A stretch of 64,000 nt of DNA from assembly GCA_041687695.1 (NCBI GenBank), contig JAWLBL010000017.1, positions 32,001 through 96,000 on the forward strand. The letters are read 5' to 3'. Made by a program: the position numbers and the translations under genes. The stretch is from Myxococcota bacterium (GTDB lineage: Bacteria; Myxococcota_A; UBA9042; PHBI01; JAWLBL01). The first letter of the stretch is position 1. Each line of letters begins with the position of its first letter. A model generated the notes under the pieces. It was not told the DNA's origin. It was given only the letters and a program-made list of their open reading frames with translations, and ran no database searches. Positions 30,475 to 64,000 of the stretch are shown here, piece by piece.

Positions 30475-32949
<2,475 letters not shown>

Positions 32950-48409: not shown

Positions 48410-49177
48410 TCAGCGTCCCAGGTACTTCACGCAGATCACGGTGACGTTGTCCTTGCCACCGTTGTCGCAAGCCGCCTTGATGAGGGCCTCGACCGCCTTG
48501 TCGAGGTCGTCCCGGTGACGGTCGACGAGCTCGAGGATCTGCGGGTCCGTGACCTCGCCGCTGAGGCCGTCCGAGCAGAGGACGAAGATGTCGTCGACCT
48601 CCGGCGCGTCGCGGCACACGTCGACCAGCACGGACTCCTTCATGCCGAGCGCCCGCACGATGATGTTCTTGTGCGGGAAGGCCGCCTCCTCCTCGGGGGT
48701 CATGGCCTGGATCTTCTTGTAGTCGTTGAGGAGGGAGTGGTCCTCGGTCATCGGGTCGAGCTTGCCCTTCCGATAGCGGTAGCAGCGGCTGTCCCCGACG
48801 TGGGCGATGACGATGTGCTCGTCGGTCCAGTGGCACCCGACGAACGTCGTCCCCATGCCCTTGTAGCGCATGTCCTCGAGCGCGGTCTCGAAGATGGTCC
48901 GGTTGGCGAGCTTGACGGCCGCCGAGATGCGGTTCTCGTCGTAGCCGAGCTCGCGGTCCATCTTGTAGGGCCACGTGATCTCGTCGTCGCCGTCGGTCTC
49001 GAGGAAGAAGTTCCGGAGCGTGTCGACGGCGATCTTGCTGGCCACCTCACCCGAGCTGTGCCCCCCCATGCCATCGGCGACCACGAAGAGGTTCTGCTCC
49101 GGGAAGAGCATGAGGTTGTCCTCGTTGTGGTCTCGCTTCATCCCGACGTGGGTGGCACCCGCGTACTGCAGCTTCAT
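48410..49177 (-). CDS. PP2C/Stp1-family Ser/Thr protein phosphatase
   Basis: THVGMKRDHNED, VADGMGGH, GMGTT, HVGDSRCY, LCSDGL, GGKDNVT. Confidence 0.95.
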   Translation of the reverse strand: MKLQYAGATHVGMKRDHNEDNLMLFPEQNLFVVADGMGGHSSGEVASKIAVDTLRNFFLETDGDDEITWPYKMDRELGYDENRISAAVKLANRTIFETALEDMRYKGMGTTFVGCHWTDEHIVIAHVGDSRCYRYRKGKLDPMTEDHSLLNDYKKIQAMTPEEEAAFPHKNIIVRALGMKESVLVDVCRDAPEVDDIFVLCSDGLSGEVTDPQILELVDRHRDDLDKAVEALIKAACDNGGKDNVTVICVKYLGR

Positions 49178-49383
49178 CGATGCCTCGATCTCCGGCCTGT
49201 CTCTGAGCCTCTCCGCGCCGAAGGATGGCACGGGAGGCGGCCGGCTGCAACTGGTGCCACGACGCCTGTCGGGCCGAGAGGGGAACGTCGCGGTTGTCGA
49301 TTCGGCGCGCGTGGTTATCCTCGCTCGCCCCGAGCCCGGCAGGCGTGGCCGGGGGACTGGCCGCGGCCGCGGTGGGAGGCGAC

Positions 49384-51950
<2,567 letters not shown>

Positions 51951-51954
<4 letters not shown>

Positions 51955-51980
51955 CACCCCGGACGAGCGACTCCTAACAT
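51951..51980 (+). promoter_or_regulatory. Putative sigma-70-type promoter for the Ser/Thr kinase
   Basis: TTGACA-N18-TAACAT overlapping the uvrA stop codon. Confidence 0.5.
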
Positions 51981-52037
51981 CGCGGCATCCCTCGGGGGGG
52001 CCCGGAGGGAGTCAGACTCAGACCGCGCGCCGAGCTC

Positions 52038-54161
52038 ATGACGCAGACTTTCGGCAAGTACCAGCTCGATCAGCTCATCGCGGTGGGCGGGATGGCCGAG
52101 GTCTTCCTCGCGCGCCAGTCTGGCCCGGCGGGCTTCCAGAAGCAGCTGGTCGTCAAGCGCATCCTCCCGCAGTTCGCGCAGGACGCGAAGTTCATCCAGA
52201 TGTTCCTCGACGAGGCCCGGCTCGCGGCGCAGCTGGCGCACCCGAACCTGGTCCAGATCTTCGAGCTCGGTGAGGAGCAGGGCGCCTACTACATCGCCAT
52301 GGAGTACATCGATGGCGAGACCGTGGCCGACATCATCGACCGCGCCAACGCCCTCGGCGTGCGCCTGCCCTACCACTTCGCGGCCCGCGTCATCGCGCAC
52401 GTCTGCGCCGGACTCGACTACGCGCACCACTTCACGACCAGCAGCGGCGAGCCGCTGAACCTGGTCCACCGCGACATCAGCCCGGACAACATCCTGGTGT
52501 CGTGGACGGGCGCGGTGAAGACCATCGACTTCGGGATCGCCAAGGCCCAGACCAACCGCACGAAGACCCAGTCGGGGGCCGTCAAGGGCAAGTTCTGCTA
52601 CATGTCGCCCGAGCAGGTCATGGGCAAGCCCCTCGACGGGCGCAGCGACCTCTTCAGCGTCGGCATCGTGCTCTACGAGCTGGTGACCGGCGTGAGGCCG
52701 TTCGGGGACGACGCCGGGCTGATGGCGGTCTCCGCCATCGTGAACGAGGACCCGCTGCCGATCCGAGAGCGCGCCCGCGACATCCCCGAGGCGCTCGAGG
52801 CCATCATCTTGAAGGCCCTCGCCAAGGATCCCGACCATCGCTACGCCCGCGCGCGCGACCTGCAGGGCGACCTCGAGACGTTCATCCAGTCGCACGCCAG
52901 GTTCGTCAACGACTCCGAGGTCGGCGAGTTGATGCAGGCGCTGCGCCGGGGCGAGGCGCGCGACGTGACGTTCGTCAAGCGCCTGCAGCGCGAGATCCAC
53001 ACCACCGTCGAGGACGGCGCCGGTGGGGCCCAGGAGTCCAGCGGCAGCTGGCGACTGCCGGGCCTCGCCCGTCGGGGATCCGAGCCCGATTCGCGGTCGC
53101 CACCCGTGGGCGCGAGCGCTCCCAGCGCCGCCTCGACCCAGCCGGCAGCCCTTGGCGGCTTCCGCAAGCGGTCACCGACGGGCCTGGACCCGAAGAAGCG
53201 GAACGCCATCCTCGCGGGCGCGGTCGGGGGGGCGTTGGCGCTCGTGCTGATCCTGGTGTTCACCTCTTCGAAGGACTCGCTCGAACCTCCGGCGGACAGC
53301 CGTCCGCCCGTCGACGCGGCGCTGCCCGAGCCGGTGGTCGCGACGCCGGCACCGCCTCGGCCCCAAGCCGCCACCGAGGACGAAGATGAAGCGCCCGAGG
53401 GACGCGACTACGACGAGCAGGTCGTCCCCACGGCGGCGCTGGGTTCGCTCGAGCCGGCGAGCGCCAGGTTCGGTGACCTGCGGTTGCCTCCCATCCAGGA
53501 TGGAACCGGCCCCGCGGCGGCCGCCAACGAGGCTCACGCCGGCTCGGCCACGGCGGACGTGACCGCCGGCGAGATCGAGGCCGACGCCTCGGCGTCCGAG
53601 TCGACGCCCGATACGCGGGCCAGCGCGCCCGATGACGCCGGTCCCGCTGCGGCCGAGGACACGAGCGGGCCGGTGGCCGAGCCCGACGGCGGCGCGAGCG
53701 GGCTCGAGGAGGACGACGACCAGCCGCGGTCCAACTTTGGAACCATCCGAGGCGAGGGCAAGCTCATCCTCGACAGCAACCTCCATGGCGCCGAGGTCTG
53801 GGCCAACGGTCGCAAGATCGGGACGACCCCGCTGCGGATGAACCTGTTCGACGGGACCTACGACCTCGAGGTGCGCGCGGGCGCGGCGCGTTGGGTCAAG
53901 GACGGTGTGCGCATCGAATACGGTGGCACCCGGACCTTCAACGCGCGCCTGTCGGCCGGACGTGTCGCGATCGAAGGCGTGCCGCTGGGCGTCCTGTGCA
54001 CCCTGGACGGAGTGCTGGTCGCCCGATCCCAGTTCGACGGGGTGTTCGTCGCCTCCGGCGACCACGAGGTCGTGTGCGACGACCCGGCGCGCGGCAAGCG
54101 CAGCGTCAAGGTGAGCGTGCGGGCGGGCGCCAGCGAGCGTGCGGTCATCGCCTGGGACTGA
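52038..54161 (+). CDS. Membrane Hanks-type Ser/Thr protein kinase with C-terminal PEGA-like domain(s)
   Basis: GGMAEVF, VVKRIL, HRDISPDN, DFG, GKFCYMSPEQ, DGRSDLFS; one TM; C-terminal GAEVWANGRKIGTTP. Confidence 0.93.
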   Translation: MTQTFGKYQLDQLIAVGGMAEVFLARQSGPAGFQKQLVVKRILPQFAQDAKFIQMFLDEARLAAQLAHPNLVQIFELGEEQGAYYIAMEYIDGETVADIIDRANALGVRLPYHFAARVIAHVCAGLDYAHHFTTSSGEPLNLVHRDISPDNILVSWTGAVKTIDFGIAKAQTNRTKTQSGAVKGKFCYMSPEQVMGKPLDGRSDLFSVGIVLYELVTGVRPFGDDAGLMAVSAIVNEDPLPIRERARDIPEALEAIILKALAKDPDHRYARARDLQGDLETFIQSHARFVNDSEVGELMQALRRGEARDVTFVKRLQREIHTTVEDGAGGAQESSGSWRLPGLARRGSEPDSRSPPVGASAPSAASTQPAALGGFRKRSPTGLDPKKRNAILAGAVGGALALVLILVFTSSKDSLEPPADSRPPVDAALPEPVVATPAPPRPQAATEDEDEAPEGRDYDEQVVPTAALGSLEPASARFGDLRLPPIQDGTGPAAAANEAHAGSATADVTAGEIEADASASESTPDTRASAPDDAGPAAAEDTSGPVAEPDGGASGLEEDDDQPRSNFGTIRGEGKLILDSNLHGAEVWANGRKIGTTPLRMNLFDGTYDLEVRAGAARWVKDGVRIEYGGTRTFNARLSAGRVAIEGVPLGVLCTLDGVLVARSQFDGVFVASGDHEVVCDDPARGKRSVKVSVRAGASERAVIAWD

Positions 54162-54221: not shown

Positions 54222-55259
54222 CTATCGAGGCGTAGCGGGCGTCAGCCACTGGTCGAGCGCCTCGGGCACGCCTCCGAGGATGTCGGCCTCCAGCATGAGC
54301 TGCCGCCAGTCGGGCGGGTCGGCCTGCACCTCGAAGCGGACGTCGTGTGTCGATCGCCCCGGGGGGAGCCCCACCAGGCGACGTTCGAGCACGTAGCTAT
54401 GTGGGGCCAGCGAGAACGTGTCCACCACCTCGCCGTCGACCCAGGTGCGAACGGTGACGGGGCCGCCCGGCTCCGAGCGCACGGCCTTCTGGTTCAGGCC
54501 GACGCGGACCACGAGCGCAGCGCCGGTCGGAGCGCCGGGCCAGGACACGGACAACACCGCGTTGCCGGGGCCCGGGTGCGCGTACAACCAGGCCACCTCG
54601 CGGTGAAAGACGTTGCGGCTCTCGACGCGGGGGTCGAGCCAGGGATCCAGGCCGCAGCGATGGCGTCCGTCCTTCCAAGGGCACTTCACGGCACGGCCAT
54701 CGCTCAGGTGGCGCTCGACGACCAGCCGCGCCACGTCGTCGGTCAGTCGAGCGCGAGCGTCCAGACGCGGCAAGTCGTAGCGCGCCAGGGCCACCCCGTC
54801 TCCCAACTCGACGTGCTCGGCCGGCGTCATTCCGGCGAGGCCCTGCATCGACAGCACGGGCGGCGCATGGAAGGCGCTCAGGACCCAGACGCGATCGAAC
54901 CGAAGTAGCTCGAGCGGGTCGAGCACGTCGCCCCGCTGCAGGGCCGGGAACGGCCAGCGCCCCAGGCCCTCGCCCAGCCCGGCCAGATCCTGCCACACGG
55001 ACTCGTACCAGTTCGGCAGCACCACGATGGCATCGCCGGCCTCGAAGCCAGCGCGGATCTGCTCGACCGCGACCGCGAGGGGCTCGGCGGCGGGCACGCG
55101 CGCCTCGTGACGTCCATCGACGACGAGCGCGGCGATCGAGAGCGCGGCGGCCACGAGGAGGACGACGACCCCTCGCAACGGCCGAGCGTCACGCGAGGCG
55201 GCCGCTGGAGGCTTGGGCGTCGAGGCGATGTGGGGGCTCGAGGGCTCGGCGATGGCCAT
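54222..55259 (-). CDS. Hypothetical membrane-anchored extracytoplasmic protein
   Basis: N-terminal TM (VVVLLVAAALSIAALVV); co-directional with and 51 bp downstream of the CHAT gene. Confidence 0.6.
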   Translation of the reverse strand: MAIAEPSSPHIASTPKPPAAASRDARPLRGVVVLLVAAALSIAALVVDGRHEARVPAAEPLAVAVEQIRAGFEAGDAIVVLPNWYESVWQDLAGLGEGLGRWPFPALQRGDVLDPLELLRFDRVWVLSAFHAPPVLSMQGLAGMTPAEHVELGDGVALARYDLPRLDARARLTDDVARLVVERHLSDGRAVKCPWKDGRHRCGLDPWLDPRVESRNVFHREVAWLYAHPGPGNAVLSVSWPGAPTGAALVVRVGLNQKAVRSEPGGPVTVRTWVDGEVVDTFSLAPHSYVLERRLVGLPPGRSTHDVRFEVQADPPDWRQLMLEADILGGVPEALDQWLTPATPR

Positions 55260-55310
55260 GGCGGCCGTGTACCCCAAAGCGAAGCCTGCGTCACCAAAGG
55301 GAACACGCGC

Positions 55311-57119
55311 TCACCACGAGACGACGACGACCCTGACGCGCTCGCTCTGCGACGCGAGGCGCCCTACCGCGGCGTCGAGGGACGCGCCCGAGCCGGTCTC
55401 GGTCAGGAGCGCCGCGAGCTCCCGCTCGCGAGCGATCGGCTGGGCCATCCCTTCTACATCCCCCGTGGTCAGGACGAAGGCGACGCGATCGGGACGCGCT
55501 GCGGGCGCCCAGCTGCCCCGGCCGGAGGGCCAGTGCTGCGGGTCCGTGGGGGGACGCAGCAGCGTGCCGTGAGGCGCTGGATACAGGCGCGCGACGGTGC
55601 CGCTCGACTCGAGCCGCCAGAGCGCCACGCTCGGCTCACCCGCGACGTCCAACGTGACGCGGATGCGCGCGTCTGGAGCCAGGGCGGCGCCGGACGCCAC
55701 GGGGCGGGCCTCGGGCGTGCCGTCGAGCGCGACGACGTCCAGGTCCGGGCCCCTGGTCGGCTGGATCAGGGTCGGTGTCGCGCCAGGTGGCCACCAGCGA
55801 TGCGTGACGAAGGCGGCCGTGGCGGCCAGGACGACGAGCGCGACCGCAAACGACGCGCGGCTCGCCAACGACGGACGCCGGGGCATCTGCGTCACGCCCG
55901 AGCGTGTCTCGGCGGAGTGCTTCCGGAGCCTGAGCAGGGCCGGGCGGGGCGGCTCCGGGGTGCTCACGGGAGCCCTTGGGAGCGGCCGCGCTCGCGTCTG
56001 GGGGGCGCCGAGGCCGGTTGCGTCCGACGGCGTCGCGGGGCGAACCCCCTCGGCGGGATCGCCGTACAACACATAGGAGGCCCAGAACACGCTTCCCGGG
56101 CCATAGCGTTCGAGCAACGCCCGCCGCGCCGCTCGGAGCGCGACGCCGACCGGAGCGCCGGCGAACGCGGCGCGGTGGAACGCCAGGGCGAGGTGACAAG
56201 CTGGCTCGTCGGGCACGTCCCAGCGCGGGCCGACGAAGTGACGGGCGCCGCAGGCGAGGAAGGTCGCGGCGAAGGACGACTCGGCGTCGGGGCCGCTCGG
56301 GGGGCTGTCGTCGGAGGGGGCCGCCGAGCGGCAGGCGTTCGAGAAGACGAGCCGAGGCCACCGTGCGCCGTCGGAGAGGCGGAGGAGATCCGATCGCGTC
56401 AACGCGCCGTCCTCGAGCAGCCAAGCTCCGGTCTCAGGGGAGCCGGCCAACCGCTTGCCGTGTCCGGCGTAGTGGATGACGTCGTAGTCGCGCCACAGCC
56501 GCTTGAGGTCGGTCAGACGGACCTCGGTCCCGAGGAGGTCCATCTGGACGTCCCGGGTGCCGGCGCCGAGCTCGTCACGCAGAAGCAGTCCCTCGTAGTA
56601 GGCGCCCATCAGATCGCCAAGGGGATCGCAGACCACGAGCATGCGTAGGCGCGGGGGCGCGGCGCGCGGGCCCGCCGCGAGCGGGGTGGCGGAGGGCGAG
56701 ATGCGCCCAACGGCGTGCCGCAGCGCGAGGAAGCTCCGCCCGTCGTGGAGCAGCTCCCAGGGAAGCGCGGCGAGGGCGGCGTCGAGCTCGAGCGAAAGGA
56801 TCCCGTCTGGGCTTGCACGCAACGCGGCCACGATCGAGGCGGGGAGCAGCTCGCCATACAGCAGCTCGCCGAACGGCCGGAGCGCTTCGAAGCTGCCGCG
56901 GTCGTCGTCGCCGAACCGGGTGGCCCCCGAGAGGATCGCGGCCATCTGCGTCGTGACCTCCACCGCCAGCTCGGGACGCCACGCGAGCGTTCCAGCGCCC
57001 AGCGTCCGTGCGGCTCCAAGGCGCCCGGAGGTCAGGGTCGCCTCGAGCAGGCCGTCGACGACCCTGGCTCGCAGGCGCAGCTCGGGGCCGGACCCCATCG
57101 TCGCGCCGGCGGCCGTCAC
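55311..57119 (-). CDS. CHAT (caspase-like clan CD) protease with one TM helix and a C-terminal DUF4384-like extracytoplasmic domain
   Basis: LPWELLHDG, DVIHYAGHG (His), LVFSNACRS (Cys), FLACGARHFVGPRWDV.D, WASYVLYGDP; TM ASFAVALVVLAATAAFV; C-terminal ESSGTVARLYP. Confidence 0.88.
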   Translation of the reverse strand: MTAAGATMGSGPELRLRARVVDGLLEATLTSGRLGAARTLGAGTLAWRPELAVEVTTQMAAILSGATRFGDDDRGSFEALRPFGELLYGELLPASIVAALRASPDGILSLELDAALAALPWELLHDGRSFLALRHAVGRISPSATPLAAGPRAAPPRLRMLVVCDPLGDLMGAYYEGLLLRDELGAGTRDVQMDLLGTEVRLTDLKRLWRDYDVIHYAGHGKRLAGSPETGAWLLEDGALTRSDLLRLSDGARWPRLVFSNACRSAAPSDDSPPSGPDAESSFAATFLACGARHFVGPRWDVPDEPACHLALAFHRAAFAGAPVGVALRAARRALLERYGPGSVFWASYVLYGDPAEGVRPATPSDATGLGAPQTRARPLPRAPVSTPEPPRPALLRLRKHSAETRSGVTQMPRRPSLASRASFAVALVVLAATAAFVTHRWWPPGATPTLIQPTRGPDLDVVALDGTPEARPVASGAALAPDARIRVTLDVAGEPSVALWRLESSGTVARLYPAPHGTLLRPPTDPQHWPSGRGSWAPAARPDRVAFVLTTGDVEGMAQPIARERELAALLTETGSGASLDAAVGRLASQSERVRVVVVSW

Positions 57120-57799
57120 GCCACGAACTCCGAACCCCTCAGCTCCAGCTCGACCACACCGACATCGCTGCCGCTGCGGGCCAGGACCAAACGGTAGGCG
57201 CCTGGACGAAGCGCGCCAAACGTGACCCGTCCCAGGCGGGTGGACAGGCTGGCCAACGCTCGCTCGTCACGGGTCAGGGTGACCTGGACGTCCTCGGTCG
57301 GCCTCCCATCCTGCCCATCATGGCTGACGTCCAGCAGGACGGCGAAGCGACCGGCGGCCGCCGATGACACCTGCGTGCGCACACGGAGCCCACGGCTGCG
57401 CGCCTCCGCCACCAGATCGTGCGCTTCCGTCGCGCGGGTCGGCACGGCCGCGACGGGCTCGCCCATGATCTCGACGGGCACGATCGCGCCCCCGAGCGCA
57501 CGTGCGACGATCCTCAGCAGGACCGCCGTCTGCAGCCGGCGCCGACTCAGGCGCTCGATCGCGGAGGCGATCCGGCCCTGAGGCACCGCCCTGGGCCCGG
57601 CCTCGTGGGCGACCGAGAGGAGCTCGTGGCAGCGCGTGCAACCCTCGACATGGGCGGCCAGGGCCCACGGTTCGCAGTTCGAACCCGCGAACGCCGCCAG
57701 GTCGGGACAAGGGCCTGCGCCGGCGCGCCCGAGCGCGCTCAGCTCCTGGAGGAGCGCCTCGAAACCATGCGGCCTTCGGGCGTCTTCGGATCGGTCCAC
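57116..57799 (-). CDS. Putative soluble zinc-binding anti-sigma factor (zf-HC2/ZAS motif + C-terminal beta-sandwich)
   Basis: CPDLAAF...AHVEGCTRC (HxxxCxxC); C-terminal GRVTFGALRPGAYRL resembles a carboxypeptidase-regulatory-like fold; GAGGAGG RBS before GTG 57799; GTGA overlap with the CHAT gene. Confidence 0.7.
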   Translation of the reverse strand: MDRSEDARRPHGFEALLQELSALGRAGAGPCPDLAAFAGSNCEPWALAAHVEGCTRCHELLSVAHEAGPRAVPQGRIASAIERLSRRRLQTAVLLRIVARALGGAIVPVEIMGEPVAAVPTRATEAHDLVAEARSRGLRVRTQVSSAAAGRFAVLLDVSHDGQDGRPTEDVQVTLTRDERALASLSTRLGRVTFGALRPGAYRLVLARSGSDVGVVELELRGSEFVA

Positions 57800-57857
57800 G
57801 AGCCACCTCCTCTTCGACGGACACCATAGACGTTCGTGTCGTCGCCTCCTCACACCG

Positions 57858-58475
57858 TCAGCCAGCGCCGCCCCTCAGCATCCGCGCGAGCGCCTCGCGA
57901 AGCCGCTGCAGAGCGCGCGTCTTGCGCGTGTAGAGCGTGCCCGTTCGCACGCCGAGCTCGCGCGCCAGGCGCTCGGGAGGGACCTCGTCGACCACCAGCC
58001 GCAGCAGGAGCTCGCGATCCGAGTCGGACAGCGTCTGCAGCGCACGCCTGAGCTCCTCGAGGCGTCCCGCCCTGACCAGGAGGTCGAGCGCCGAGGGCGT
58101 ATCGTGGGGGACGGCGTCGAGCGCCTCGGGGCTGCTGACCCGGGCGCGCGCGGCATCCAGACGATGACGCCGCAGCTGATCCACCACCACGGAGGCCGCG
58201 ACCAGGCGCACCCAACTGGCGAGCGAGCAGCGCCCGCTCCATTGCCGCAGCCGGCGTTGGTCGCGGTCGAAGAGGGCGACGAACACGCTGTCGAACAGCT
58301 CCTCGACCCGGTCGGTGTCCGCCCGCACCTGGGCGCGGCGCAGCGCCGCGTAGATGACCCCATAGACCAGCCGACCGAAGCGTTCGACCAGCTCCTCCCA
58401 AGCGCCGGGTGTCCGCGACAGACACCCGGCGACCAGCTCCACGTCCGCGCTCGCACGCTCGATGGGTAGGTTCAT
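57858..58475 (-). CDS. ECF RNA polymerase sigma factor
   Basis: AWEELVERFGRLVY (region 2), SLASWVRLVA, ALQTLSDSDRELL...ERLARELGVRTGTLYTRKTRALQRLR (region 4). Confidence 0.88.
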   Translation of the reverse strand: MNLPIERASADVELVAGCLSRTPGAWEELVERFGRLVYGVIYAALRRAQVRADTDRVEELFDSVFVALFDRDQRRLRQWSGRCSLASWVRLVAASVVVDQLRRHRLDAARARVSSPEALDAVPHDTPSALDLLVRAGRLEELRRALQTLSDSDRELLLRLVVDEVPPERLARELGVRTGTLYTRKTRALQRLREALARMLRGGAG

Positions 58476-58485
58476 GGCTCGCTGA

Positions 58486-58510
58486 GACGTCGCGCGTCGA
58501 AAAAAGTTCC
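58486..58510 (-). promoter_or_regulatory. ECF-type promoter GGAAC-N16-CGTC upstream of the ECF sigma gene
   Basis: Minus strand GGAAC TTTTTTCGACGCGCGA CGTC, ending 10 nt before the ATG. Confidence 0.65.
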
Positions 58511-58565
58511 GAGCCGTTGTAAAAGGGCCGCGCCCCACCGCGAGGCGACCAAGTACGGAGGTGAC

Positions 58566-59024
58566 ATGCGACGGACTATCTGGCGAGTTCTGGCCCCCGT
58601 GGCCGTGCTGCTGGCCGCGGCCTGCGGGCCGGGCATGGACGAGCGGTCGGGCGGCGACGCCACCCGCGGCGAGGCCGCGCAGGTGGCGCTCGACACGCCC
58701 TTCGACGACCGGGTGAGCGCGCCGCAGGGCGATCACACCGACTGGAAGACCTTCTCCGTCGATGGCCCGACGCGCGCCGAGGTCCACGTGTGGTGGGACG
58801 ACCCCGGCCTCGCGGCCACGGTGACGGTACGAGACCAGTTCTCGGCCGCGCTGGGATCCCTCAAGCACAGGCCGGGCGAGCGCGTCGAACGGCTCGGTCC
58901 GCTCGAGCTCGAGCCCGGCAACTACTTCATCGAGGTTCAGGCGAGCGAGGGAGCGAGCGTCTACACGATGGAGATTCGCACCTCGGCTGGCCGTTCGAAG
59001 GCGCCCTTGCGGCCCGACTTCTGA
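58566..59024 (+). CDS. Small lipoprotein with PPC-like beta domain
   Basis: GGAGG RBS; lipobox LAAAC; GDHTDWKTF and LEPGNYFIEV. Confidence 0.7.
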   Translation: MRRTIWRVLAPVAVLLAAACGPGMDERSGGDATRGEAAQVALDTPFDDRVSAPQGDHTDWKTFSVDGPTRAEVHVWWDDPGLAATVTVRDQFSAALGSLKHRPGERVERLGPLELEPGNYFIEVQASEGASVYTMEIRTSAGRSKAPLRPDF

Positions 59025-59234
59025 GCGGGGAGGGTGACCGGTGCGGCCGTCGGTGCGAAGTGAGGTCAGTCGGCCCCACCTGGGGTCCGATGTCACCGGG
59101 TCGAAGCTCCCCCGGCACGTCGCTCCTGGCCCCCCGTGCCTCCGGTCCGCGGCTCCGAGGGGCGGGCGAAAAAAACTTGGCCGGGGCGGCGCCGATGGGC
59201 TCGTTTTCCTTTGAAAACAGCGTCTTGGGTCGGA

Positions 59235-59264
59235 TTGACACTGGAAAAAGGGCTGTGCTACGGT
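59235..59264 (+). promoter_or_regulatory. Putative sigma-70-type promoter of the eCIS operon
   Basis: TTGACA-N18-TACGGT with TG extended -10, preceded by A/T tracts. Confidence 0.5.
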
Positions 59265-59340: not shown

Positions 59341-59934
59341 ATGAGTCAGTTCGAAGTCATCAAAGACATCGGCGATACGGTGAAGGCGCTGCTCGAAGAC
59401 GCATTCAAGAGCGCCGGGTTCACGACCGTGAACATCTCCGTGGACAAGCCGAAGAAGGACAACATCAAGAACCTGCCCACGGTGAACTGCTACATGTACC
59501 ACCTGGCGTTCGACTCGCGGTATCGCGAGCGGACCCAGTCGCTCGTGTCGTCCTATACGAAGGACGGGCGGATCGTGGAGTACTACCGCGACGCCCCGGT
59601 CCACATGCTCGCGCACTACATCCTCAGCGTCTGGGGCAACTCCCCGGCCGAGGAGAACCTGCTGACGGGCCTCGCGGTCAAGACGCTGCTGGAGTATCCC
59701 GTCTTGACGGGTGAGCAGCTCCGCGGCGAGAGCTTCTTTCCGGACGACAAGCTCAACGTCTATCCGAACCTTCAGTCCGACTTCAATGATGTGCTGAGCT
59801 TCTGGCGCAGCATGAACGAGGAGCTACGGCCCGCGGTCTTCTATTTCGTCCGGTTCCGTATCGAGTCCGATCGGAAGTCACCGGAGGTTAGGCGAGTCAC
59901 TGGCAAGGATCTTGCAGTTACCCGCAGCCGGTAG
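59341..59934 (+). CDS. eCIS Pvc16/Afp16-like (DUF4255) cap/terminator protein
   Basis: VNCYMYHL, HYILSVW, EENLL.GLA..TLLEYPVL, FWRSM...RPAVFY; first gene before the sheath. Confidence 0.75.
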   Translation: MSQFEVIKDIGDTVKALLEDAFKSAGFTTVNISVDKPKKDNIKNLPTVNCYMYHLAFDSRYRERTQSLVSSYTKDGRIVEYYRDAPVHMLAHYILSVWGNSPAEENLLTGLAVKTLLEYPVLTGEQLRGESFFPDDKLNVYPNLQSDFNDVLSFWRSMNEELRPAVFYFVRFRIESDRKSPEVRRVTGKDLAVTRSR

Positions 59935-60094
59935 CTACGGCCACCGGTTGGGGGTTCGGGGTGGGCCTCCCGTTGAACGACAGGATCTCAGTCATGCCGC
60001 GGATGCGGGCCAGCGACTAAATCGGGAATCGGTAAGCCCCTTCGGGGCGACACGGGTGGGAACCCCTTAGATCCTTGAGGAGGAGCATTCAACC

Positions 60095-61255
<1,161 letters not shown>

Positions 61256-61275
61256 TTTTCTTGATACCAGCCGGA

Positions 61276-61301
61276 GGGGCCCCGGAAGGGTCCGGGGCCC
61301 C
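61276..61301 (+). promoter_or_regulatory. 11-bp GC hairpin between sheath and tube genes (no U-tract)
   Basis: GGGGCCCCGGA-AGGG-TCCGGGGCCCC. Confidence 0.55.
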
Positions 61302-61339
61302 GAACGCTGGAGTAACTTTGAGAGACTGAGGAGGATACG

Positions 61340-61771
61340 ATGCCGAATCGTCGGCCCCATGACCACATTGGCAACTTCAACTTCAAGGTTGAGATCGAGG
61401 GCGTGACCCAGGGTGCGTTCCGCAACGTCGAGGGCCTCGACTCCGAGACGGAGATCGTCGAGTACCAGGACGGCGACGACATCATCCTCCGCAAGCGCCC
61501 CGGCCGCACCAAGTACAGCAACATCGTGCTGAAGCGCGGCTACATCAACACGACCGAGCTGTGGGACTGGCGCAAGGCCGTCATCGACGGCAAGGTCGAG
61601 CGCAAGTCCGGCTCCGTGATCCTCTGCGCCGACGACGGCACCGAGATCATGCGCTACAACTTCTTCGAGGCGTGGCCCTGCAAGTGGAAGGGCTTCACCC
61701 TCGACGGCAAGGGCACGGACGTGAACGTCGAGGAGATCGAGCTCGCGGTCGAGAAGGTCGAGCGCGGCTAG
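61340..61771 (+). CDS. Phage T4-gp19-like tail tube protein (eCIS Afp1/5-like)
   Basis: FNFKVEIEG, VEYQDG, KRPGRTKYSNIVLKRG, LWDWR, AWPCKW, VEEIEL. Confidence 0.95.
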   Translation: MPNRRPHDHIGNFNFKVEIEGVTQGAFRNVEGLDSETEIVEYQDGDDIILRKRPGRTKYSNIVLKRGYINTTELWDWRKAVIDGKVERKSGSVILCADDGTEIMRYNFFEAWPCKWKGFTLDGKGTDVNVEEIELAVEKVERG

Positions 61772-61792
61772 TCGACTCTGACGGGTTGATGT

Positions 61793-61832
61793 GACGAAGG
61801 CCAGCTCTCTCGGGGGCTGGCTTTCGTCGTTT
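61793..61832 (+). terminator. Probable terminator/attenuating hairpin after the tube gene
   Basis: GACGAAGGCCAGCTC...GGGCTGGCTTTCGTC followed by GTTT. Confidence 0.55.
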
Positions 61833-62018
61833 CGGGCTGGCGCGACGACACGACCGACGGCGCACGATGAGCCCGGTCGCGGGCGCACTCCCGAGACTGA
61901 ACGAGCCCGGACGGCCGCCGTTCGGACCGTCCCCCCACCGGTTGCATCCTCGCCGCGTCCGGGTTACCTATGACGCTCCGAGGATGCCCCTCGACGACGA
62001 TCGGAAGGCAAGCACAGC

Positions 62019-62390
62019 ATGGCGTTCAAGACCGAGTTCGAGTTCACCCTGCCCAAGGGCTACGTCGACAAGGAAGGCAACGTTCATCGCAAGGGCGTGA
62101 TGCGCCTTGCCACTGCGAAGGACGAGATCCTGCCTCTGCAGGACTACCGCGTCCAGAACAACCGAGCCTACCTGGTGATCATCTTGCTGAGCCGCGTCAT
62201 CAGCAAGCTCGGCGACCTCAAGTCGATCAACCCGTCGGTCATCGAGGAGATGTTCTCGACGGACCTCGCGTACCTGCAGGACTTCTACCGGCGCATCAAC
62301 GAAGAGGGCACGAGCGCCGTGAAGGTGAAGTGTCCGGCCTGCGCGCACGGCTTCGACGTCGACCTCGGGGCCGACATGGGGGAATCGTAA
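62019..62390 (+). CDS. eCIS tail assembly chaperone (short, 0-frame product)
   Basis: EFEFTLPKGYVD..G.VHR.G.MRLATAKDEI, LLSRVI..LG, DLAYLQDFYRRIN, C-terminal CPAC; lies directly after the tube gene. Confidence 0.85.
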   Translation: MAFKTEFEFTLPKGYVDKEGNVHRKGVMRLATAKDEILPLQDYRVQNNRAYLVIILLSRVISKLGDLKSINPSVIEEMFSTDLAYLQDFYRRINEEGTSAVKVKCPACAHGFDVDLGADMGES

Positions 62391-62554
62391 GCTACCCCCT
62401 GGAGCGCATCTACCAGGAGGTAGCGTACATCGCGTACCACTTCCACTGGTCCATCGACGAGATCCTCGAGATGGAGCACAAGGAGCGGCAGGTCTGGGTA
62501 CGCGAGATCTCTGAAATCAATAAGGAAATCAACCAGTCGCGACGCAGTTCGTGA
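62381..62554 (+). CDS. DUF6760-like chaperone extension read in the -1 frame (probable programmed frameshift fusion)
   Basis: YPLERIYQEVAYIAYHFHWSIDEILEMEHKERQVWVREISEIN in the -1 frame; no nearby start codon or RBS before the conserved segment. Confidence 0.8.
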   Translation, partial: GIVSYPLERIYQEVAYIAYHFHWSIDEILEMEHKERQVWVREISEINKEINQSRRSS

Positions 62555-62616
62555 CCTCGGGCGCCGGTCGGATGCGAGGCCGGCCCCGGCCCCTATCGCC
62601 TCTCGGAGAAGTTCCA

Positions 62617-64000
62617 GTGGTTACGCCCCGAGCCCCCGGTGTCTATCAAGCCCCCCGGGACCGACGCTACACCCCCCTCACCCTGGGTGAGGTGGGCGTG
62701 CCCGGCTTCGTCGGCGTGGCCGAGCGTGGCCCGACGAACGACCCGGTTCGGATCACGTCCATCGACCAGTTTCACGACGTGTACGGGAACCTCGAGGAGC
62801 ACGGCTACCTCACGGACGCGGTTCAGGGCTTCTTCGAGAACGGCGGCCAAGCGTGTTACGTGCTCCGCGTCGCGCACATGGTCAAGCGCCTCCGCGAGGA
62901 GGTCGCCCGCCCGGCGTCGCTGCGACTCCAAGGGGACGGGGGCAAGCCGACCCTGGTCCTCCGAGCCTCGAACGAAGGGGTCTGGGGGAACAAGATCCGG
63001 GTGACCGTGGCTCGGCAGAAGCCACGCGTGTCCACCTTCCTGACCCTCGACCTCAAGTCGGGCGACACCTCCGCGGTCATCAAGAGCACCATCGGGCTCG
63101 CGCGCGGAACCATCGTCCGCATCTATGACGGCGACAAGGAGACGTTCCGAACGATCACCGAGCTGAGCGGCAAGAACATCAGCTGGTCCATCAGCGAGCC
63201 GCTCGAGCAGGACTTCCGATCCGGGGCGCCCACCTACATCGAGCCCGTCGAGTTCAGCGTGGACGTCCAATGGAAGGACCAGCGCGAACGGTTCCGCAAC
63301 CTGACGATGGCGCGCTCGTCGGATCTCTACGTCGAGCGGGTCATCAACACACAGTCGGCTCTGGTCCGCGTCGAGGATCTGGGCGCGGACGTTCCGGTCC
63401 ACCAGGCGTTTCCAGTGGACGTGCCTGAGACGAACCTCGAGAGCGGCACGGACGGGCTGCTCACGGTCACGCCCGAGGACTTCATCGGCGCGAACATCGG
63501 ACCGGGCGAGCGCTTCGGGCTCGCGGCCTATGAAGCCGTCGAGCAGATCGATCTCCTGTGCGTGCCGGACCTCATGTGGGCGCTCGACAAGAGCACCGGC
63601 TTCCGGACCGAGAAGGACGTCGAGGTCGTCCAGGACGCCATGGTCAGCCAGTGCGAGCGTCTCAAGACCCGCTTCGCGATCCTCGACCTGCCCGACCCTG
63701 TCGACCACCGCCGAGCGCTGCAGTGGCGCCTGCTCTTCGATACGCCGTATGCGGCGTTCTACTACCCGTGGATCCAGGTCGACGGATCGCAGGGCACCCG
63801 TCTCGTGCCGCCCTCGGGCCACATCGCGGGCATCTACGCCCGGTGCGACAACGCCCAGGGGCCCTTCCGGGCACCGGCCAACGAGGACATCGAGGGGGCG
63901 CTCGACATCGGCCGCGTCCTGCAGGACAGCGATCTGGGGCTCCTGAACGACCAGGGGGTCAACTGTCTCAAGCCGTTCCCGCGTCGCGGGATCCGGGTCT
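62617..64000 (+). CDS. Second contractile tail sheath protein with inserted domains (runs off the window end)
   Basis: GGAG + GTG; PGVY, GVPGFVGVAERGP, AVQGFFENGG, GVWGN, RFAILD, AAFYYPW, PPSGHIAGIYAR, APANE; open to 64000 (absent from the supplied ORF track). Confidence 0.9.
   Translation, partial: MVTPRAPGVYQAPRDRRYTPLTLGEVGVPGFVGVAERGPTNDPVRITSIDQFHDVYGNLEEHGYLTDAVQGFFENGGQACYVLRVAHMVKRLREEVARPASLRLQGDGGKPTLVLRASNEGVWGNKIRVTVARQKPRVSTFLTLDLKSGDTSAVIKSTIGLARGTIVRIYDGDKETFRTITELSGKNISWSISEPLEQDFRSGAPTYIEPVEFSVDVQWKDQRERFRNLTMARSSDLYVERVINTQSALVRVEDLGADVPVHQAFPVDVPETNLESGTDGLLTVTPEDFIGANIGPGERFGLAAYEAVEQIDLLCVPDLMWALDKSTGFRTEKDVEVVQDAMVSQCERLKTRFAILDLPDPVDHRRALQWRLLFDTPYAAFYYPWIQVDGSQGTRLVPPSGHIAGIYARCDNAQGPFRAPANEDIEGALDIGRVLQDSDLGLLNDQGVNCLKPFPRRGIRV

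Follow-up and report, generated by a model that had tools for sequence, protein, structure and literature searches.

How could a membrane-anchored protease of the CHAT family pass a signal to the sigma factor that is encoded beside it? This question is raised by three co-directional genes in a 64,000-nucleotide stretch of DNA, here called the window (positions 32,001 to 96,000 of contig JAWLBL010000017.1, assembly GCA_041687695.1, from a Myxococcota bacterium; all coordinates below are those of the window). Read from the minus strand, the genes encode in this order a sigma factor of the extracytoplasmic function (ECF) type, a middle protein that is likely to be its soluble anti-sigma factor and a CHAT protease of 602 amino acids (aa; 55311-57119) with one predicted transmembrane (TM) helix. 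The module is real and widely conserved, and its logic is already known. We consider it probable, judging from sequence comparisons, that the CHAT protease would cut the anti-sigma factor after Arg140, that the sigma-bound fragment would then be degraded and that the sigma factor would amplify its own operon. The most interesting aspect is a predicted relay of two proteases in relatives of this module, which is partly lost in the copy described here.

The three genes lie where the original prediction placed them, and the stop codon of the middle gene overlaps the start of the CHAT gene in the sequence GTGA (57116-57119). None of the three frames is interrupted, and their third-position GC is 0.84-0.88, compared with 0.86-0.95 in neighbouring genes. 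The sigma factor was also named correctly, as it scores 65.4 bits against the sigma70-ECF model TIGR02937 (cut-off 42.9; model positions 2-165 of 165) and matches Pfam Sigma70_r4_2 (E 6e-7). TIGR02937 is likewise matched by 45 of 46 sigma factors of the family. The protein has a minimal ECF build, comprising regions 2 and 4 only. The source genome holds at least 14 open reading frames (ORFs) that match the sigma profile, and the contigs carrying its three other CHAT ORFs gave no match to that profile. This gene-level description was sound as far as it went, but it overlooked an ECF-type promoter (58486-58510) and the degenerate state of the protease's outer domain.

The protease matches PF12770 (E 1e-30) and has the intact His/Cys dyad that had been claimed for it, with HYAGHG at 216 and NAC at 261-263. 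Both His216 and Cys263 are retained in 54 of 54 aligned homologues. A structural model of the protein, in which a beta/alpha domain precedes CHAT, resembles Csx29, the best match, and separase (fold search, E about 1e-12); separase was not returned by a profile search of the PDB, and on plasmids the CHAT domain found two weak matches. The single TM helix is borne out by a hydrophobic segment at residues 422-440, and a TM segment follows CHAT in 129 of the 131 homologues long enough to score. Lysine and arginine are richer on the CHAT side of this segment in 110 of the 129 (12 tied, 7 reversed; mean 4.6 versus 1.7), and adenylate/guanylate cyclase domains are fused on that same side in homologues. 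The position of the helix, the charge bias and the side taken by the cyclases together lead us to predict that CHAT is cytoplasmic and not, as would have been awkward for the original prediction, extracytoplasmic.

Beyond the helix, homologues carry DUF4384, TPR, CsgG-like, CHASE2 or trypsin domains, and DUF4384 was found in 25 of 39 aligned homologues. The description of the present C terminus as DUF4384-like holds in part. The domain has no direct Pfam match, DUF4384 (PF14326) included, yet it matches a profile of 20 DUF4384-bearing relatives that was built without it (E 1.8e-9; reversed control 0.11), and the good match is limited to about 55 residues at the N-terminal end of the outer domain. 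At four loci (L074, L082, L056 and L053) an adenylate/guanylate cyclase domain stands ahead of CHAT, and the outer part combines TPR with a CsgG-like domain.

Residues of the middle protein are counted from 57853, from which point its frame is open; the likelier start is the GTG at 57799, which is preceded by GAGGAGG and agrees with the 227-aa database entry P0124. The AlphaFold model consists of N-terminal helices (29-84) that carry the zinc-motif residues C49 and H68-x3-C72-x2-C75, a beta-hairpin, a loop (131-146) and an immunoglobulin (Ig)-like sandwich. The best 19-residue hydropathy is 1.70, on a stretch modelled as a helix end plus a beta-strand. By sequence, the protein is probably of the soluble zinc-binding anti-sigma (ZAS) type, in keeping with the HxxxCxxC motif and the want of a clear TM helix noted before. 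A fold search returned Ig- and macroglobulin-like domains (best Z 8.6), where the matches to the C-terminal part are only generically Ig-like. Because a direct homology search with the anti-sigma factor returned two proteins only, the family was assembled from gene neighbourhoods. The protein's own sequence has no zf-HC2 match, which 35 of 54 family members do have, and the family profile finds, weakly (E 0.001-0.3), anti-sigma domains in the PDB: the DdvA N terminus (E 0.0011), RsiW (E 0.008), ChrR and RsrA. HxxxCxxC is present in 96 of 109 family rows, and none of the 109 reaches the hydropathy of a TM-like segment (1.8).

The arginine at position 140 is present in 108 of the 109 anti-sigma factors. 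The residue that follows it (P1′) is Ser in 64, Gly in 34 and Ala in 4, and Ala is what the source genome's copy carries. Of the 12 closest loci, 11 have lost the zinc motif stressed by the original prediction, along with a large part of the N-terminal region, but have retained the Arg loop and the Ig-like domain. The loop arginine is thus better conserved than the zinc site. This pattern of conservation is as would be expected of a cleavage or docking site.

The survey of co-conservation drew its loci from three sources: 12 related genomes, a genome collection (the best 80 of 578 matches) and metagenomes (the best 80 of 552 matches, giving 78 loci). After de-duplication these gave 143 CHAT genes, of which 97 were scorable, with 3 kb or more of sequence ahead of the catalytic His. 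The sigma and middle genes both lie upstream on the same strand in 89 of the 97. Four of the eight misses have no partner (L048, L053, L081 and L160), one has its sigma gene 4 kb further off (L110), and in three (L145, L146 and L152) the second CHAT gene of a tandem pair was scored, the first having both partners. The linkage of the trio is far above chance. Among the labels of these loci are Myxococcota, Omnitrophota, Planctomycetales, Nitrospirae and Thermodesulfobacteriota; for the protease, the nearest relatives bear the label Myxococcota or Deltaproteobacteria. In an even sample of the host phylum the protease was found at E 1e-35 in 24 of 401 genomes. Furthermore, the anti-sigma and CHAT genes have been lost together in five related genomes (G001, G003, G004, G008 and G012; G numbers denote genomes, G000 being the source, C numbers contigs and L numbers loci).

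Five loci (L222, L225, L227, L229 and L230) encode CHAT proteins of 1350-1600 aa, and in four of them the trio's sigma and anti-sigma genes adjoin. Pfam sees an AAA-TPR tail in L222, the sole one scanned. As read from their domains, these long AAA-TPR CHAT proteins are a cytoplasmic-sensor version of the switch. The outer domains and the AAA-TPR tail vary while the trio stays, which argues that the core consists of sigma factor, anti-sigma factor and CHAT protease and that the sensor is exchangeable.

Before the sigma gene lies the ECF-type promoter candidate. The sequence GGAACTTT is present in 11 of the 14 related loci examined, namely in all 11 that are linked to the contractile injection system next door, and in a scan with a strict ECF motif the operon's site tops the source genome by 18 bits. 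In the module-less genomes G001, G008 and G012 the divergent sigma70-like promoter of the adjoining lipoprotein gene is kept, and no ECF element was found. In G004, which retains only the sigma gene, the element has decayed. The ECF element thus tracks the presence of the module, which supports autoregulation, and the promoter is likely to be autoregulatory. The G004 remnant (L258, C12, 3500-4270) consists of the sigma gene alone, the anti-sigma and both CHAT genes being lost, and a gene for a multi-TM glycosyltransferase-like protein comes next. Before the sigma genes of Omnitrophota loci, mostly a TATAAT-type element stands in place of the ECF site, as read by eye.

A regulon was sought at three levels of stringency. 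The strict motif gave one site per genome in the source genome and in four of five relatives; in G017 its sole match lies away from the module. A looser motif returned the operon site plus two other sites for five of five module-bearing relatives, against four in the control, and one site each in two of five module-less relatives, and the loosest was uninformative (52-106 sites per genome versus 26-108 in controls). Of six looser sites in the source genome, three precede genes whose products have no Pfam match; the other three lie before a VIT-vWA gene, an MG2 (alpha-2-macroglobulin-type) gene and a Ser/Thr kinase gene. We treat these as leads only, because of the 14 or more sigma-profile ORFs of this genome. 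Sites of the form GGAACTTT-N13-SGTC lie 30-70 nucleotides (nt) before four genes of G000, at L269 (C15, near 76057), L266 (C7, 100395), L265 (C2, 247533) and L267 (C14, 48222). These genes encode, respectively, an MG2-domain protein, a VIT-vWA protein and two unannotated, secreted-looking proteins, and are possible targets of either the module's sigma factor or another ECF sigma factor.

The closest precedent comes from Anabaena sp. PCC 7120, according to the accessible parts of the papers concerned. HetF, a single-pass membrane protein of the order CHAT-TM-TPR (PMC8406250), with an N-terminal CHAT and an outer domain as here, cuts the soluble inhibitor PatU3 after an arginine, between R117 and S118 (PMC9457339). 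PatU3 inhibits the ECF sigma factor HetZ (PMC13342950), which is encoded next to it and transcribes it; the accessible text of that paper makes no mention of HetF. HetF differs in that its outer domain is TPR, it is located at the divisome and it seems to act continuously, and the accessible text does not place hetF in the hetZ-patU operon. Moreover, sigma-HetZ, of at least 401 aa, has three insertions that PatU3 binds, whereas the present sigma factor is a minimal ECF protein of 205 aa without HetZ-specific insertions. Here, in contrast to the HetF pathway, the anti-sigma factor has a ZAS motif, the three genes are coupled, and the outer domain is of the DUF4384 type (TPR in Omnitrophota members). 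By its sigma architecture as deduced from sequence, the module is outside the HetF-PatU3-HetZ pathway; we liken the two by their logic.

If our preferred reading is correct, the ZAS-like N-terminal part of the middle protein would hold the sigma factor until the cytoplasmic CHAT domain of the membrane protein cuts after the conserved Arg140 and so frees it. The cut would part the N-terminal piece from the Ig-like tail and leave the fragment to general proteases, a fate that has been reported for PatU3 and proposed for Csx30. Once freed, the sigma factor would transcribe its own operon, giving positive feedback. In relatives with four genes, the trigger would be an exported TPR-CHAT protein that acts on a tag, RG[ILV][AG]G, in the receptor's outer domain.

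The tag and the fourth gene vary together, by a pattern that was defined from the same sequences as were scored. Among 20 loci with a DUF4384-type outer domain, 15 had the 4 kb or more of downstream sequence needed for scoring, the other five being tagged but too short. A TPR-CHAT gene follows the receptor gene in 12 of 12 tagged scorable loci and in 0 of 3 untagged ones. All 14 distinct partner ORFs start with a signal-peptide-like hydrophobic stretch, and partners carry RG[IV]GG inside their own CHAT domain. At the genome level, the partner is present in G002, G009, G010, G011, G013, G015 and G016. With the query used, it was not found in G000 (99% complete), G006, G017, G020, G022, G029 or G007 (67% complete); all of these except G007 either lack the tag or have a short outer domain. 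A single genus includes both G013, with tag and partner, and G006 and G017, with neither. The tree has loci with tag and partner at three separate places, which leaves few independent tag/partner events. At one four-gene module (L232, G016:C82, 4100-10200) the receptor and TPR-CHAT genes contain frameshifts, and are pseudogenes or reflect assembly errors.

This four-gene form, with its covariation of tag and partner, is what is new here. We raise as a tentative possibility, itself short of probable, a relay of two caspases in which the exported TPR-CHAT protein would cut the outer tag and the receptor's cytoplasmic CHAT would cut the soluble anti-sigma factor at the matching Arg loop. Such a protease-activated-receptor cascade would have interchangeable sensors and occur in many phyla, and the source genome would hold an uncoupled three-gene derivative of it. 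The earlier statement that no TPR array is involved is therefore right for the source protease, which has no TPR, but not for its relatives, whose fuller form includes an exported TPR-CHAT protein and many of which have TPR outer domains.

The source genome's own copy has kept its frames, codon bias, dyad, Arg140, zinc ligands, TM helix and full promoter. Neither the RG[ILV][AG]G tag nor the TPR-CHAT partner was found in this genome, and the copy looks like a reduced derivative that either has been rewired or is subject to relaxed selection, and whose trigger is likely to have been weakened, replaced or made constitutive.

Several observations weigh against the proposed mechanism or narrow its reach. 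Of 60 near-invariant CHAT columns, the source copy departs from the consensus at 8, more than any other of the 54 aligned sequences, and its anti-sigma factor has lost the conserved R190 and E199. The copy's end branch measures 1.12 (median 0.27) and lies among orthologues with tag and partner, although the placement of so long a branch is unsure. The count of 89 in 97 stems from best matches dominated by Omnitrophota, which are kin and not independent; 15 further loci of the host phylum gave eight with both partners, two with one, two with none and three cut by contig ends. The strict and looser scans found no conserved target promoter other than the operon's own. Pairing of tag and partner is not strict, as G008, and as far as searched G014 (67% complete), have a partner TPR-CHAT without a receptor. 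The receptor's own cytoplasmic linker bears an R-G motif in 10 of 12 close relatives, which makes self-cleavage possible. Finally, the isolated CHAT domain of HetF is active and complements a deletion without TM or TPR (accessible text of PMC9457339), so gating by an outer domain is not a necessity for a protease of this kind.

Four alternatives were weighed. The state of the source copy would suit a decaying remnant, in which the family works as proposed while this member, having lost the exported protease, passes no signal and has low constitutive output or none. The missing tag and partner, the deviating columns, the lost R190 and E199, the Ala at P1′ and the long branch all fit such decay, as does a stepwise loss among relatives, from a short outer domain (G006) through a sigma gene alone (G004) to nothing (G001 and G012). 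We nevertheless regard this as unlikely, given three intact frames with the third-position GC stated above, the retention of Arg140, the dyad, the zinc ligands, the TM helix and a full promoter, and the occurrence of tag-less three-gene forms in G017, G022 and G029 as well. A different substrate is also conceivable, and here we judge the chances to be slim: the receptor itself might be the main target, with self-cleavage at the linker R-G motif freeing CHAT for other targets, or CHAT might merely bind the anti-sigma factor through the Arg loop and Ig-like domain. The motif in the close relatives is of the R[VIL]RG type, the partner TPR-CHATs have the tag within their own CHAT domain, and autopeptidase activation was proposed for EACC2 systems in the available part of Kaur 2021 (PMC8195603). 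Only 34 of 123 family members, however, show a similar linker motif, and the source copy has RK at the aligned position, whereas the anti-sigma arginine is almost invariant and HetF cuts its anti-sigma factor at a comparable R|S site.

It is very doubtful that the module controls the contractile injection system encoded head to head with it, although such a role would be compatible with cleavage of the anti-sigma factor. The head-to-head layout is identical in 11 related loci, and the ECF site overlaps the divergent lipoprotein promoter, which it could occlude. Yet the injection operon has a TTGAC-type promoter of its own in 12 of 12 sequences (TTGACA-type near 59229-59260), no ECF site lies between the sigma gene and 45 kb beyond the window, the module occurs without the injection system in most other loci, and the system is present without the receptor in G001, G003, G004, G008 and G012. 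Its own promoter and its occurrence without the receptor make the injection system probably a neighbour and not a target. Least plausible, and in our view highly improbable, is that the middle protein is no anti-sigma factor but a bait or inhibitor of CHAT, securin- or PCi-like, and that the sigma factor does no more than drive an operon that serves, for instance, defence or cell death. A bait inhibitor could well present an Arg loop exposed on an Ig-like fold, and PCi sets a precedent for one (10.1101/2023.06.23.546230); moreover, the closest loci have mostly dispensed with the zinc motif and a large part of the N-terminal region. Against it stand the HxxxCxxC motif in most of the family, the profile matches to the anti-sigma domains of DdvA, RsiW, ChrR and RsrA, the place of the middle gene directly behind the sigma gene, the decay of the promoter in G004, where the sigma gene has lost its middle gene, and the absence of a PADLOC match for the three proteins.

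Cleavage of the anti-sigma factor by the membrane protease, our preferred reading, has further parallels, again as far as the accessible text of the papers goes. In the computational study of Kaur 2021 (PMC8195603), caspase genes with variable TM-CHASE2 or STAND tails lie beside genes for an ECF sigma factor and DUF1822. The EACC2-caspase proteins described there have a constant alpha+beta domain ahead of a caspase-like domain whose tail varies; in ours, a beta/alpha domain precedes CHAT, the tail varies among homologues, and an ECF sigma gene and a second conserved gene adjoin. The novelty of the division of labour in the original prediction was overstated, since HetF/PatU3/HetZ (PMC9457339, PMC13342950) and Kaur 2021 precede it. 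On cyanobacterial plasmids the order is sigma, DUF1822 and CHAT-CHASE2, as in the trio. DUF1822 (PF08852) itself had no match among 54 middle-protein family members or in the source genome. Compared by hhalign, the C-terminal profile and DUF1822 are weakly similar, with a score of 20.2 (E 0.013, probability 3%), above all 30 of 30 shuffles (maximum 17.2) and with R-S in register; the N-terminal domain against eight cyanobacterial N termini, one of which is a signal-peptide TPR protein, scores 13.4 (E 0.15; shuffles up to 11.2). These plasmid loci are likely to be parallels of the module. At L238, L243 and L245, DUF1822 genes have CHAT-CHASE2 and DUF928 genes as neighbours; L243 and L245 contain one more CHAT gene each, and an [LMF]RS motif precedes a beta-rich domain in 5 of 10 DUF1822 C termini.

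Two other systems share parts of this design. DdvS/DdvA of Myxococcus xanthus (PMC11506125, accessible text) likewise unites an ECF sigma factor, a CHCC-type zinc anti-sigma domain and CHAT in one unit, and DdvA is the best PDB sequence match of the anti-sigma profile. There, a membrane anti-sigma factor has a periplasmic CHAT fused to it, and release needs RseP, whereas here the anti-sigma factor is soluble and CHAT is separate and predicted to be inside. A DdvA-type single chain of ZAS, TM and periplasmic TPR-CHAT is absent here, the genes being separate and none of the 109 anti-sigma factors attaining a hydropathy of 1.8. In the type III-E Csx29/Csx30/CASP-sigma system, CHAT cuts a soluble two-domain anti-sigma factor and relieves an autoregulated ECF-like sigma factor, and some Csx30 C-terminal domains are DUF4384; that protease (Craspase) differs in being activated by Cas7-11 and target RNA, in being a soluble TPR-CHAT that cuts after Met or Leu, and in having no membrane receptor (accessible text of PMC10028731 and 10.1101/2022.08.17.504292). 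The earlier statement that no CRISPR component is involved accords with what was scanned: no Cas gene among the scanned ORFs, the flanking ones being kinase and injection-system genes, and no PADLOC match for the module and two flanking genes, with no array search made. In literature drawn mostly from outside subscription journals, we found no description of a ZAS anti-sigma factor with an operonic membrane CHAT receptor, nor of the two-protease form.

If the mechanism holds, the HetF-PatU3-HetZ logic would be one case of a general transmembrane route of sigma activation and not a peculiarity of heterocysts, and this route would bypass the site-1/site-2 proteolysis of membrane anti-sigma factors. 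The operon is compact and supplies a candidate substrate, a scissile residue and a promoter of its own, so that it can be tested directly in Escherichia coli, with many natural sensor swaps at hand; a four-gene orthologue would be better suited to such work than the divergent source copy. The covariation of tag and partner also offers a function for DUF4384 domains and for exported TPR-CHAT proteins that lack a known substrate.

Table 1. Features of the module and its surroundings, in window coordinates.
Feature	Position	Strand	Basis
351-aa membrane-anchored protein, unnamed Myxococcota family	54222..55277	-	follows the module in related loci
Predicted outer domain of the protease, DUF4384-type, shortened, without RG[ILV][AG]G tag	55311..55790	-	leave-self-out profile
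Single predicted TM helix, residues 422-440	55800..55856	-	hydropathy 1.96; helix 418-441 in model
Predicted cytoplasmic part: N-terminal alpha/beta domain and CHAT, His216/Cys263	56040..57119	-	PF12770, dyad conservation, model matches
Likely soluble anti-sigma factor, 227 aa: ZAS-like helices, Arg loop, Ig-like sandwich 145-242	57116..57799	-	profiles, AlphaFold model, fold search
Arg140 codon, predicted cleavage site	57434..57436	-	conserved Arg; loop 131-146 between strands (model)
ECF sigma factor, 205 aa	57858..58475	-	TIGR02937 above cut-off; Sigma70_r4_2; 6/6 family-conserved columns without deviation
Candidate ECF-type promoter, GGAACT-N15-CGTC; sigma ATG 10 nt downstream	58486..58510	-	motif in related loci
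Candidate sigma70-like promoter of the lipoprotein gene, divergent, TCGAAA-17-TAAAAG, overlapping the ECF site	58500..58528	+	same layout in 12/12 sequences

Downstream of the protease gene, the gene for the 351-aa protein is also found in genomes without the module. The protein has no Pfam match and its Atlas matches are all unnamed; we regard the gene as a resident outside the core and as a possible read-through target. Still on this far side of the module, genes for a PP2C phosphatase, a short UvrA-like protein (909-aa frame) and a Ser/Thr kinase with PEGA form a conserved block (48410-54161).

On the other side, the contractile injection operon runs from 59341 to 64000 and on into L190, with genes for Pvc16_N, two sheaths, tubes, CIS_tube-LysM, baseplate J and a PASTA tail protein. 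Its sheath is 86-94% identical in 17 of 21 related genomes. Between this operon and the module, the gene at 58566-59024 encodes a predicted lipoprotein of 152 aa without a Pfam match, which precedes the injection operon in every related locus examined and has a weak paralogue on contig C13.

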